DNA from: a virus | Lineage: Duplodnaviria; Caudoviricetes | Strand: one strand, 5' to 3' | Length of the DNA: 24,739 nt | IMG/VR virus record: IMGVR_UViG_3300037191_000107 | Span: 1 to 24,739 of that record | In this document: piece after piece, positions 4,194 through 17,534 of the stretch | Position numbering within the stretch: the stretch's first letter is position 1 | How the letters are laid out: every line of letters begins with the position of its first letter | Position numbers and translations under genes: made by a program | Notes under the pieces: model-generated | Seen by the model: the letters and a program-made list of their open reading frames with translations, nothing else | Databases searched by the model: none | Told to the model about the DNA's origin: nothing

Positions 4194-5908
4194 TATAAAG
4201 TTCTTTGGTTGTTAATATATGATTGTGCCTCTTGGCTATCTGTTACGGTTTGACTAATTACAAATGCTTCTACTGGTTGTTGACCTTGAGCGTTTACAGA
4301 GTTCACCACATCACCTAAACCTGTCGCAGCAGGAATTGATGCAGCTAAGTTGCCTCCTATACTTGGAACGCTTCCACCTCCACCACCTCCACCACCAGGT
4401 ACATCGGTGTCTAATATCTTTTTAACATTCGCTAAACCTACTAAACCTGTTGCAACTGCTTGAGCTATTGCGTAACCTGGAATAGGAAGCCCTGAGAATG
4501 CCTTTAATTGCCCTGCGATTGCTGCATAAGTATCAATAGTAGCACCTGCAACTGCAATAGCTTTATTATCTCCTGCTAATTTACCTAATGCACCAACTAC
4601 TGCACCTGCTGCTGCAAGTTTTGCATCTCTCTCACCTTGTGCAATTAGTAATTTCTTTTGTGCAAATGATTTTTCTATTTCAGTAGTGTCAGCTCCTGAC
4701 TTTCTTGCAAGTTCTAATTGTGCTTTATACCATTGCTCTAATTCCTCAAGCTCTAATTCTCTGTTGTTCTTTCCTATTAGTGATAATTCATTCTGAGATT
4801 CTAACAACTCCTTACCAAGAGCTACCTGATTAGTCATCTGCTCAGATTCTTGTCCTATGATTCTTTCGTTAATATCAATTAACTCAGTCTTAGCTTCTTT
4901 TAAAGCTATTTGTAAGTCAATATTATCAGCGTTTAAATCAGATTCTAATTGAGCGAGGTCTACTTTCTTTTGAGCTAACTCAGTTTCTTTCTCTAATTGC
5001 TCATCGAGTATTCTTCCCAGTTCTTCGTTGGCTGCTACTCTTTGTGCTATCGTTGCACTTTCATCATCTCTAATTTGCCTTTGTAATTCTGCTTGTGTTT
5101 GGTATGTAAGCATTAAGCCTTTTGCATCGGCATCTAATAACTTAACCTCATTCCTTAACTTAGTTAATTCTCCACCTGTTTTAAATGCTGCTTTTACATC
5201 AATAGCCTCTAATCCTTTTTTACCTTCTTCTACTATTATTTTAGTAGCTGCAACAACTTCGGTAATAGCTTCTGCTATATTATCACCTATGTTTTTAGCT
5301 GCATCTATGGCTGCATCTTTTATATCTAATAGACTTTGCTTGGTTTCGTTTAATGATTCAGTAAGTGAGGCTATTTTACCCTCATCACCACCACCTAAGA
5401 ATGAATCCTCCCAAGCTATCATCAAGGCTAATATACCTGCTTTGATTCCGTAGAACGCAACCTTAATAGGTGTAAGTGATAGTGTAATAACACCCATCAG
5501 CACCTTGCCTAACCCCTCGAAGCCTTCGCTTGATTTGGTTACACTATCATAAACATCAGTAACAACATCAGAAACCTCGTTAAATACAACGCTAATAGTG
5601 TTCATTGCAGTAGAAACCAAATCCATTACAGTCTGATTCTGTTCTAATACCTCTTTAAGTTTAGAGAATAGAGCCATAACAAGACCTATACCTGCTGCCT
5701 TCATTGCTAAACCTACACCTTTAAAACTTTTACCTAATGCCTTGGTTGCCTTTGATGCTGACTTAGTTGCCTTCGCCGAATCTTCTGTTGCTTTTGCTGC
5801 ATCTTTAGTAGCTTTAGCAGATGCATCAATACCATCTTTTAACTCTTCTAAATCTTTTAATGCCTTATCTACTTTGGCAACTAAATCGAGCCTTACTTCT
5901 TGAGCCAT
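4193..5908 (-). CDS. Tail tape measure protein
   Basis: 571 aa, Ala/Leu/Glu/Lys-rich and helical, with hydrophobic stretches, a long coiled coil and a Gly-rich C-terminus ending QPVEAFVISQTVT. Confidence 0.8.
   Translation of the reverse strand: MAQEVRLDLVAKVDKALKDLEELKDGIDASAKATKDAAKATEDSAKATKSASKATKALGKSFKGVGLAMKAAGIGLVMALFSKLKEVLEQNQTVMDLVSTAMNTISVVFNEVSDVVTDVYDSVTKSSEGFEGLGKVLMGVITLSLTPIKVAFYGIKAGILALMIAWEDSFLGGGDEGKIASLTESLNETKQSLLDIKDAAIDAAKNIGDNIAEAITEVVAATKIIVEEGKKGLEAIDVKAAFKTGGELTKLRNEVKLLDADAKGLMLTYQTQAELQRQIRDDESATIAQRVAANEELGRILDEQLEKETELAQKKVDLAQLESDLNADNIDLQIALKEAKTELIDINERIIGQESEQMTNQVALGKELLESQNELSLIGKNNRELELEELEQWYKAQLELARKSGADTTEIEKSFAQKKLLIAQGERDAKLAAAGAVVGALGKLAGDNKAIAVAGATIDTYAAIAGQLKAFSGLPIPGYAIAQAVATGLVGLANVKKILDTDVPGGGGGGGGSVPSIGGNLAASIPAATGLGDVVNSVNAQGQQPVEAFVISQTVTDSQEAQSYINNQRTL
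5738..5820 (-). repeat. Degenerate 21-bp (7-aa) tandem repeat in the tape measure N-terminus
   Basis: Encodes SAKATKD-AAKATED-SAKATKS-ASKATKA. Confidence 0.6.
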
Positions 5909-14571: not shown

Positions 14572-15023
14572 ATTCCTGCTCCACAACACTCACACACATC
14601 TTTAGTCGCTTCTTCTAATGCGTTATCTTCGTACTTATCCAAGTTTATATTCAAGTCGTTTACAGTGAACCCTACATCGAATAGTAGTTCTTCATCAAAG
14701 TAATTCAATAGTAAGTCATCATCAAACTTACCTCCGTTTTTATTCAGCCTTAGATTAAGTTCCATCTCATCGTTAATAGGCAGGTCTAGTATTACACAAG
14801 GGATAGTGTCGTTTCCTAAATCTAACCACGCCCTGGAGCGTTGATGCCCTCCGATAATTATGTTGTGTCTATCCTTACTTGAATTGATTATAATAGGATC
14901 AATTAAACCGAACTTCTTTAAACTGGCTTTTAAATCCTTGAATTGCTTCTTGCTTATCGTTCGAGGGTTGTACTCAGCGAATTTAAGTTCACTAATCTTC
15001 CTACTTTCTATTATCATACGCAT
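14568..15023 (-). CDS. ParB/Sulfiredoxin N-terminal domain protein
   Basis: YNPR, SL.KFG..DPIIIN, IIGGHQR and LNL.LNK motifs; C-terminal CECCG. Confidence 0.85.
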   Translation of the reverse strand: MRMIIESRKISELKFAEYNPRTISKKQFKDLKASLKKFGLIDPIIINSSKDRHNIIIGGHQRSRAWLDLGNDTIPCVILDLPINDEMELNLRLNKNGGKFDDDLLLNYFDEELLFDVGFTVNDLNINLDKYEDNALEEATKDVCECCGAGI

Positions 15024-15381
15024 TAAGTATATCCTTTAATTCGTTTATCGTTTGTCTTACACAAGTACCACAACTACTAACCTGCTTATTCATTCCGAAT
15101 ATCTCATTATATAGGTTTGTAATGCCTACATTCTCATCGTGCTTTACTTTATCTGAGCCGATTTGCTCCATTAATCGCCTCAAGATAGATAGTTGATCCG
15201 TTGTAAGGTCGTTCTCTCTCTCCCATTTACCAATAGGACACCGAGTAAATGCAATAGCTCCTTTAATCTTCATAAAGCAACCACACTTTTTACATTGACT
15301 TACTGACTTCCTGAAGTGATCGCACCCTTTACAGATAGCCATTCGTTCGTTATAGGTTCTACTGCTTGTCTTTAACTTCAT
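15001..15381 (-). CDS. Cys-rich Zn-binding protein (DUF6171-like N-terminus)
   Basis: R..IC..C.H...QCKKCGCFM..K......CP.GKW plus a second CxxC (SCGTCV). Confidence 0.7.
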   Translation of the reverse strand: MKLKTSSRTYNERMAICKGCDHFRKSVSQCKKCGCFMKIKGAIAFTRCPIGKWERENDLTTDQLSILRRLMEQIGSDKVKHDENVGITNLYNEIFGMNKQVSSCGTCVRQTINELKDILNAYDNRK

Positions 15382-16016: not shown

Positions 16017-16038
16017 AGTTTTGTTTTTGTATAGTCAT

Positions 16039-16075
16039 AAAAAAAAGGGAGCGAGGTTTAACCCTTACCCCCTTT
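16039..16075 (-). terminator. Intrinsic terminator
   Basis: Minus strand AAAGGGGGTAAGG-GTTAAA-CCTCGCTCCC-TTTTTTTT. Confidence 0.7.
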
Positions 16076-16122
16076 CAAAAACAACTAAAATGAAAATCTT
16101 ACTGCTAAGATATAAAAATAAT

Positions 16123-16308
16123 CTACTTCTCAGCTAATACTTGCTTTATTTTTTCTAAATATATTGCTAAGTCCATAGCTTCCTCTTGTGCGTGTGTTAA
16201 CCATTGCTCAACACTAAGGTCTGTTCTCTCCATTGTTACACCGTACTTGTTCTTTCCAAGCTCTGCCCTCTCTAATATCTTATCGCAGACTATTCTCTCA
16301 ACTCCCAC
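16123..16308 (-). CDS. Small helical phage protein with a MazG/all-alpha NTP-pyrophosphatase-like EExxD motif
   Basis: ERAELGKNKYGVTMERTDLSVEQWLTHAQEEAMDLAIYLEK. Likely start is GTG 16308, overlapping the upstream peptide's end, rather than TTG 16332. Confidence 0.6.
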   Translation of the reverse strand: MGVERIVCDKILERAELGKNKYGVTMERTDLSVEQWLTHAQEEAMDLAIYLEKIKQVLAEK

Positions 16309-16441
16309 AATTCTCGCAGTCAGGGTTATCAATTGAACACGCTTCAGGTTGTTCTTTAGTTTCTAATTCTCCCAACCAATCACTAAACATATTCTCAGCA
16401 ATATCTTCGGCTGCTTTTGTAACTTCTTTTTCTTCTACCAT
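16298..16441 (-). CDS. 47-aa acidic peptide ending in an RNR-alpha-like redox tail (ACSIDNPDCENCGS)
   Basis: Manual translation: MVEEKEVTKAAEDIAENMFSDWLGELETKEQPEACSIDNPDCENCGS*. ATG start, AT-rich leader, coupled to the next gene. Confidence 0.8.
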   Translation of the reverse strand: MVEEKEVTKAAEDIAENMFSDWLGELETKEQPEACSIDNPDCENCGS

Positions 16442-16469
16442 AATCAATAATAGTGTTTTTTTAATGTTG

Positions 16470-16544
16470 TTATTTAATAACTGACCTATCGTAAAGTAGT
16501 ATTCCTAAACCTACTACCAGTATTGTAATAATTAGTACATTCAT
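16470..16544 (-). CDS. Putative 24-aa membrane peptide
   Basis: MNVLIITILVVGLGILLYDRSVIK*, with an A-rich leader (AAAACAATAGAG-ATG). Confidence 0.5.
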   Translation of the reverse strand: MNVLIITILVVGLGILLYDRSVIK

Positions 16545-17125: not shown

Positions 17126-17133
17126 CAAATCTA
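17126..17133 (-). promoter_or_regulatory. Bacteroidota-type -7 promoter box (TAGATTTG)
   Basis: Matches TAnnTTTG in the intergenic gap 20 nt before the ATG; no clear -33 box. Confidence 0.55.
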
Positions 17134-17138
17134 CAAAT

Positions 17139-17534
17139 TTATTTAAGATTAAAATAATTATCTATGGTTTTTTTTGCATCATCAAATCCAGTACAAAATT
17201 TAGCCATATATCCACGAGCAGTTAAACCCTGAAGCCATCGAGTTTGATTGTACCTCGTACCACCTAAATCATAAGCCTTTTTTAAATCTCCGTTTTTCTT
17301 GTACGGTGATGAACCTTTAGCTTTCAATTCAATCGCTAAACCATTAAACCCTCCTCGTGCTTCGTATATAAACAAATCAGGAAACCCTGCGATATATCCT
17401 GTTCTTTTGGCTTTCAATTTCTGTGAATCATACTTCTGATATTGCCCACCTAAAGAAGCACAGAAAAGAGCTTTGTATTCTAATCGCAAGTAAGTAACAA
17501 CTGCTGCTTGCAAATCATCTTCTTTTGCCTTCAT
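17139..17534 (-). CDS. VRR-NUC domain nuclease (Holliday-junction resolvase-like)
   Basis: EDDLQ...G..AGFPDL.I...GLAIELK (PD-(D/E)xK)...Q..WL..L...GY. Confidence 0.88.
   Translation of the reverse strand: MKAKEDDLQAAVVTYLRLEYKALFCASLGGQYQKYDSQKLKAKRTGYIAGFPDLFIYEARGGFNGLAIELKAKGSSPYKKNGDLKKAYDLGGTRYNQTRWLQGLTARGYMAKFCTGFDDAKKTIDNYFNLK

Follow-up and report, generated by a model that had tools for sequence, protein, structure and literature searches.

Among described proteins, the nearest in kind to the phage microprotein analyzed here is a separately encoded reducing subunit of ribonucleotide reductase (RNR), NrdJb; a small disordered RNR inhibitor, Sml1, is known from yeast. The tail of the RNR alpha subunit carries a cysteine pair that reduces the active site of the neighboring subunit and is itself re-reduced by thioredoxin (Trx) or glutaredoxin (Grx), and small dithiols can also reduce the active site directly (PMC4078304). 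In the eukaryote-like subclass, the route of re-reduction is likely unlike the one solved in Bacillus (PMC11903788). How the alpha tail re-reduces the active site in eukaryote-like class I RNR, and whether this step limits the dNTP supply, are open questions.

In Pseudomonas aeruginosa the class II RNR is split, and NrdJb, the separately encoded C-terminal part with the reducing cysteines, performs the thiol exchange as an obligatory subunit whose partner lacks that part, as described in PMC4520616. Like NrdJb, the microprotein is a separately encoded C-terminal part with what would be reducing cysteines. Unlike it, the microprotein is a copy of a class I tail, 30 to 60 residues long compared to the 150 to 220 residues given for the class II domain in PMC5704485, and it is unlinked to nrd genes and occurs in phages without RNR. 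Sml1 and the free C-terminal fragment of Neurospora UN-24 offer parallels for a small acidic peptide or piece of tail that would work in trans on the large subunit of RNR. However, both are eukaryotic and are likened here by description, and the UN-24 fragment, according to PMC3618301, was engineered and is not a natural gene. A further parallel is CP12, a small disordered cysteine protein of hosts and phages that retunes a host pathway (preprint 10.64898/2026.09.10.750766), although its target pathway and host are different ones. The CP12 Pfam family matched neither the peptide (E≤1) nor any of 53 family members (E≤0.1).

A literature search that included the literal tail motif returned no description of the microprotein family in what were mainly open-access main texts; small-ORF supplements could list it. 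PMC9669993 and PMC3653736 deal with split phage genes and with the termini of RNR; the accessible portions of both mention no such peptide. The earlier note on this DNA, made from the sequence alone, had known of no described family, and we likewise found none in open-access main texts, Pfam or PHROG.

The microprotein gene lies within a run of minus-strand genes in a phage record of 24,739 bases, the whole of which was analyzed and is referred to as the window. The features around the gene are as follows.

16298..16441, minus strand: microprotein gene, 47 amino acids plus stop (from translation)
16358..16438, minus strand: predicted helix, residues 2-28 (AlphaFold2 model)
16364-16387, minus strand: acidic aromatic motif F19-x2-W22-x3-L26, the conserved part of the helix and likely docking module
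16298..16351, minus strand: copy of the NrdA tail, residues 31-47, Q-P-x2-C35-x6-C42-x2-C45-G-S-stop, predicted coil
16123..16308, minus strand: downstream gene of 61 amino acids, function not known (PHROGs 17558, 11184)
16470..16544, minus strand: hydrophobic ORF of 24 codons directly upstream of the microprotein
16037..16076, minus strand: hairpin with a U-run behind it, a likely terminator for the unit (folding energy against shuffles)
17126..17141, minus strand: weak pair of tandem TAnnTTTG boxes, upstream of the run of genes to which the microprotein belongs

Translation confirmed the ORF reported in the earlier note: 16298-16441 on the minus strand encodes 47 residues ending in C-x6-C-x2-C-G-S-stop. 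An in-frame TTG two codons upstream would give an alternative product of 49 amino acids. The peptide is acidic, with 14 D/E against 3 K/R. The GTG start of the 61-amino-acid gene overlaps the last 11 nucleotides of the microprotein gene, and in related phages its family follows the microprotein more often than any other, being the next ORF on the same strand in 22 and on the opposite strand in 9 of 80 maps (79 loci plus the window). In 42 of 80 viral loci a member of this family is no more than 5 kb from the microprotein, frequently with start-stop coupling; the window's 61-amino-acid gene had no match over 0.8 in the ESM Atlas. A Cys-rich DUF6171-like gene occupies 15001-15381 (minus strand) in the window, and 53 of the 80 viral loci have a member of its family at most 5 kb from the microprotein.

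The hairpin has a folding energy of -21.8 kcal/mol (z=-4.8), and none of 200 shuffles was equally stable; a simple terminator scan did not list it. The TAnnTTTG boxes match what we take to be the Bacteroidota -7 promoter motif. This motif occurs 27 times on the minus strand of the window and 18 times on the other, and a fuller promoter pattern with a -33 box found no match at 17126..17141. In metatranscriptomes, two runs contained about one-tenth of the sampled words. One of the two includes a 426-nucleotide contig that is about 96% alike to 16069-16490 and has an additional base at 16408, close to a homopolymer. This run as a whole reaches 19 of the 30 bins in a 20-kb stretch, and such contigs may derive from DNA even in an RNA library.

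The window also encodes a terminase, a prohead-protease-like protein, a C5-methylase and a DUF3127 protein. Its terminase is closest to those of Bacteroides and Parabacteroides phages (best matches, 37 to 42%), which points to a Bacteroidota host. As the earlier note had stated, no RNR was recognized among the 97 listed ORFs of the window, a 24.7-kb record that may be incomplete.

We compared the peptide with class Ia NrdA tails, of which it shares the acidic C-x6/7-C-x2-C motif at the extreme chain end. Its last 17 residues match these tails. An HMM built from 76 distinct NrdA tails (last 30 residues), with no microprotein included, gave the microprotein frame E=1.7e-10, a value somewhat inflated because it was the profile of the peptide itself that had brought in some of the tails; the runner-up among 898 six-frame segments of the window had 0.24. 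By this tail-only measure, the similarity reaches beyond the cysteines. A PDB sequence search (E≤10) matched the peptide to a single entry, the tail of a 963-amino-acid RNR (5im3), which scored E=0.0033 with the microprotein family profile. In NCBIfam, 46 of 53 family members matched the C-terminal end of an RNR-alpha model (E≤0.1), with scores well short of the model's cut-off.

The earlier note had called the peptide very similar to the RNR alpha tails of the eukaryote/Bacteroidota type. The match holds, but the spacing is not that of most Flavobacteriales tails, which share the G-S end and mostly read C-x7-C-x2-C-G-S (55 of 68 distinct three-Cys tails of the host type). C-x6-C-x2-C occurs in SAR86-type NrdA tails, which also share Q-P-x-A-C with the microprotein and end in Q. 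The window peptide thus combines the x6 spacing with the G-S end. With the family profile, named genomes yielded 19 loci, of which 14 are NrdA C-termini of SAR86-type gammaproteobacteria, 3 are stand-alone copies in Bacteroidota and 2 are unrelated. For long proteins, the best cellular matches are NrdA C-termini, as the earlier note had proposed to check.

Stand-alone relatives are numerous. All 32 candidates of the peptide search were short proteins, the peptide itself included. In viral contigs 130 stretches were confirmed, and 80 loci were kept from them; 79 of these are complete frames of 46 to 100 codons ending in CxxC-G-S/A-stop, and one is cut at the contig end, so stand-alone homologues do keep the terminal motif. 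A wider profile (E≤0.01) retrieved 1,152 proteins of 22 to 109 amino acids among 3,366 candidates, counted as clusters at 90% identity, some of which may be fragments of NrdA ends. A family of this size is nevertheless without a Pfam or PHROG model, and neither resource holds one that matches the peptide. The peptide fell into unnamed clusters only in the ESM Atlas. Among 50,697 deposited phage records (E≤10) there was no true homologue, only two nrdA tails and three weak matches.

A search without a length limit produced 123 representatives at 50% identity, all of 29 to 110 amino acids. Taken with the stop-to-stop viral frames, this argues that the microprotein is not covalently joined to a catalytic barrel, in which it differs from the NrdA tail. 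In 119 of the 123 representatives the chain ends no more than 2 residues from CxxC; three are extended and one (P0235) has no CxxC. Three representatives have no helix and may be NrdA ends. All three cysteines are retained in most family members, and the first is spaced by x6 in 64 representatives and by x7 in 45, both sets having the G-S end, with a range of x5 to x8 across the family. Seven viral loci (L037, L051, L058, L065, L069, L072 and L076) have extra Cys-rich N-terminal extensions of the C-x-C-G-G-N-C-x-C type, possibly a metal-binding add-on.

Over the last 26 codons, pN/pS was 0.13 (185 non-independent pairs of 78 distinct sequences), with pN biased down since the sequences were chosen by motif. 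The microprotein gene is real and under purifying selection; the lack of conservation that would have counted against the earlier note was not observed.

Three cysteines with nearby Asp/Glu might instead be ligands of Zn or of an Fe-S cluster and serve in its storage, delivery or sensing, the RNR likeness reflecting origin only. The cysteines are invariant in a 66-row wide alignment, an invariance partly imposed by the search profile, whereas the first is missing in 8 of the 66 NrdA tails read. Human RRM1 in cells can do without this residue for recycling, as described in PMC11143221, and class II RNR C-termini bind Zn, as described in PMC5704485; some members also have further upstream cysteines. 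However, the first Cys lies at a variable distance (5 to 8 residues), which is as expected of a flexible tail, the predicted structure is a coil with no compact fold (AlphaFold2), and no metal-handling neighbor was seen to be common across phage groups. We regard a metal-binding or Fe-S peptide as improbable.

The AlphaFold2 model of the peptide consists of one helix (residues 2-28) and a coil tail, with a mean pLDDT of 80 and a pTM of 0.46. This is not the thioredoxin fold with an N-terminal CxxC that marks thioredoxin, glutaredoxin and NrdH, and Pfam gave no match to these either. The helix carries a motif, hydrophobic-x2-aromatic-x3-L/M, located 12 to 16 residues before the first Cys. Of 122 representatives, 114 have it; of 68 NrdA tails none does, and no Trp occurs at this position in any of them; the motif was drawn from the family itself, and only the negative in NrdA tails is independent. 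The earlier note had taken the peptide to be "only the tail," a description that does not survive the finding of this conserved aromatic helix. We infer that the helix is likely a docking module replacing the covalent tether.

To place the gene among phages, we examined its carriers. They include the small phage type of the window and larger crAss-like phages; one crAss-like carrier has a terminase 37.5% alike to that of Cellulophaga phage phi14:2. The neighbors of the microprotein differ between phage groups. When neighbors were clustered and partly annotated, none was common to all phage groups and cells; a conserved adjacent maturase gene would be looked for if the peptide were a Cys-rich RiPP precursor. 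No RNR large subunit (PF02867) turned up in 30 records of carrier phages, of which 7 are near-complete, and a monomeric class II RNR was absent from the 5 carrier phages searched. Any RNR target must accordingly be that of the host. This absence carries little weight in itself, because terminase-related non-carriers mostly have no RNR either (2 of 26 have one, in a search backed by a positive control), and mutual exclusion of the microprotein and a phage RNR was set aside as uninformative. A phage thioredoxin as partner was also rejected: four of five large carriers have a weak Trx-fold match, none of the four with CxxC. These thioredoxin-fold genes (L216-L219) encode a hydrophobic N-terminus.

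The microprotein is not confined to phages, which the earlier note had not foreseen. Stand-alone copies lie among housekeeping genes on the chromosomes of two Flavobacteriales lineages, represented by genomes G001 and G002. Carriers make up 10 of 17 genomes in the family of G001, 30 of 151 sampled in that of G002 and 15 of 401 sampled in the order. In a sample of the phylum Bacteroidota (401 genomes, narrow and wide profiles), no copy was found beyond the seed genome. In a tree from 31 columns, one branch (94/80, with an unsettled bootstrap) has the cellular copies together on the same side; the tree does not give the direction of transfer. As a minor observation, a non-carrier of the G001 family has a short-type RNR match in a frame of 1,042 codons (G127:C1:507495-508997), possibly a fusion; other short-type matches lie in frames of 550 to 610 codons.

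The chromosomal copies bear directly on the possibility that the microprotein makes up for a tail missing from its NrdA partner, for which the NrdJa/NrdJb split described in PMC4520616 offers a model. In each of the 15 carrier genomes there is, besides, a tail match within a frame of roughly 800 to 850 codons, and NrdA with its own tail was read directly in 5 of them. Because NrdA of the carriers keeps its tail, the chromosomal microprotein is an extra tail copy, additional to the host tail and not its replacement, and split-enzyme complementation is ruled out for the cellular carriers. The 30 carrier phage records, in which no alpha subunit was found, likewise speak against it, and overall we consider a split RNR piece very improbable. 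All 15 carriers fall among the 85 of 401 genomes having this tail type on a long frame, although the 15 represent two lineages only and hence about two independent events.

Together, these features make it likely, as far as sequence can tell, that the microprotein docks on the intact RNR of the host and tunes it. The predicted acidic aromatic helix and the NrdA-tail copy would form a two-part microprotein that binds host RNR. According to the model that we favor, which is tentative and somewhat short of probable, it would be a helix-anchored, trans-acting tail that helps re-reduce host NrdA. The F-x2-W-x3-L helix would dock on NrdA, or on the reductant, and stand in for the covalent tether, while the free CxxC-G-S end would enter the NrdA active site, so that the peptide would work as an extra, detachable dithiol shuttle. 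A phage without its own RNR would gain faster re-reduction and more dNTPs, and the chromosomal copies would serve the cell in the same way.

Several results count in favor of such a shuttle: the tail match to NrdA by PDB, NCBIfam and the tail HMM, the position of the chain end relative to CxxC as in NrdA, the flexible-tail spacing of the first Cys, the confinement of all 15 carriers to genomes with this tail type, and a helix that NrdA tails do not have. NrdJb provides the precedent that a separate C-terminal part can do thiol exchange. Against it, the host NrdA has its own tail and a spare is not needed for activity, and according to PMC5704485 a class II cysteine-rich domain expressed separately did not restore activity. 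The microprotein is also never next to nrdAB. In the G002 lineage it lies about 9 kb from nrdAB with unrelated genes between, in the family of G001 it is on another contig, and no nrd gene adjoined it in either lineage or in the carrier phages mapped.

A peptide of this kind could also act in the opposite sense, by binding NrdA or occupying Trx/Grx and thereby damping RNR turnover or redirecting thiol reductants, which would make it a bacterial counterpart of inhibitors such as Sml1. An active site occupied by the alpha tail is closed to the beta tail, as described in PMC11903788, so a free copy of the tail could inhibit, which also counts against the shuttle. According to PMC3618301, the free C-terminal fragment of a fungal RNR is toxic and joins yeast Rnr1 in a non-reducible complex. 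A separate copy kept in cells with an intact tail fits a regulator, and Cys-poor variants, described below, could still block. However, carrier phages without their own RNR would lose dNTPs unless they recycle host DNA, and all three cysteines are retained in most of the family. We think an inhibitor or decoy unlikely, though worth keeping in view beside the shuttle.

The Cys-poor variants came from a crAss-like clade. Two complete crAss-like records, with terminases 85 to 88% alike to that of a carrier, gave no match to the microprotein profile. At the microprotein position, they hold ORFs of 35 to 36 residues with a Trp helix and an acidic tail without CxxC-G-S. Anchoring on a conserved upstream element recovered 29 loci of this clade, 17 with full microproteins and 12 with positional variants that have no terminal CxxC (10 called by script and 2 read by eye). 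The variants are located as follows.

L360 5202-5309, minus strand: Cys-poor positional variant
L361 5325-5432, minus strand: Cys-poor positional variant
L374-L402: further Cys-poor positional variants

Among the 10 script-called variants, five have no Cys, four have one and one has two. Their pN/pS was 0.06 over codons 2-20 and 0.39 in the tail, from 10 distinct, closely related sequences. The homology of these variants to the microprotein rests on position and one intermediate (L400), with profile scores of 3 to 9 bits. Either the helix can persist in the absence of the redox pair, or a related helix peptide has refilled the slot. That the gene can be kept without its redox pair in 12 of 29 crAss-like loci counts against the shuttle.

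The same variants suggest a regulator centered on the helix, which would bind another enzyme or an allosteric NrdA site, with the tail serving as a redox switch readable by Trx/Grx in the manner of CP12. Selection on the helix after loss of CxxC, the further representative without CxxC (P0235) and the absence of adjacent nrd genes are consistent with it, and cyanophage CP12 is a case of a small disordered redox regulator carried by phages, according to the preprint cited above. Conservation of the whole tail, including the terminal G-S and the exact chain end, exceeds what a generic switch requires, however, and the slender homology of the variants and the negative Pfam result for CP12 likewise weigh against this regulator, which we judge to be unlikely.

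Returning to the tail reading, we put somewhat below an even chance the broader proposal that the family represents an undescribed class of RNR regulator: a microprotein of 30 to 60 residues whose aromatic helix clips a second, detachable redox tail to an intact class Ia RNR, together with Cys-free modulators using the same anchor but no redox chemistry, carried as an auxiliary metabolic gene by unrelated Bacteroidota phages, including crAss-like ones. If this is true, a non-enzyme microprotein joins the nucleotide auxiliary metabolic genes of phages, bacteria have small-protein RNR regulators, and the gene is among the smallest auxiliary metabolic genes and a very small tool for controlling the supply of DNA precursors. 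A natural free tail with its own anchor, with Cys-free variants as built-in controls, makes the re-reduction step testable by synthetic peptide.

Two further observations were made in the crAss-like loci. The downstream gene of 61 to 65 amino acids is missing in L360 and L361. Rfam gave no family over threshold around three crAss-like loci, and the window has no counterpart of a strongly conserved stretch of more than 100 bases that lies upstream of the microprotein in crAss-like phages. Its 35-base core is present in 29 viral contigs, and it is a possible promoter or RNA element, located as follows.

L038 about 4820-4950: conserved upstream stretch
L360 5330-5470: conserved upstream stretch
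L361 5450-5590: conserved upstream stretch
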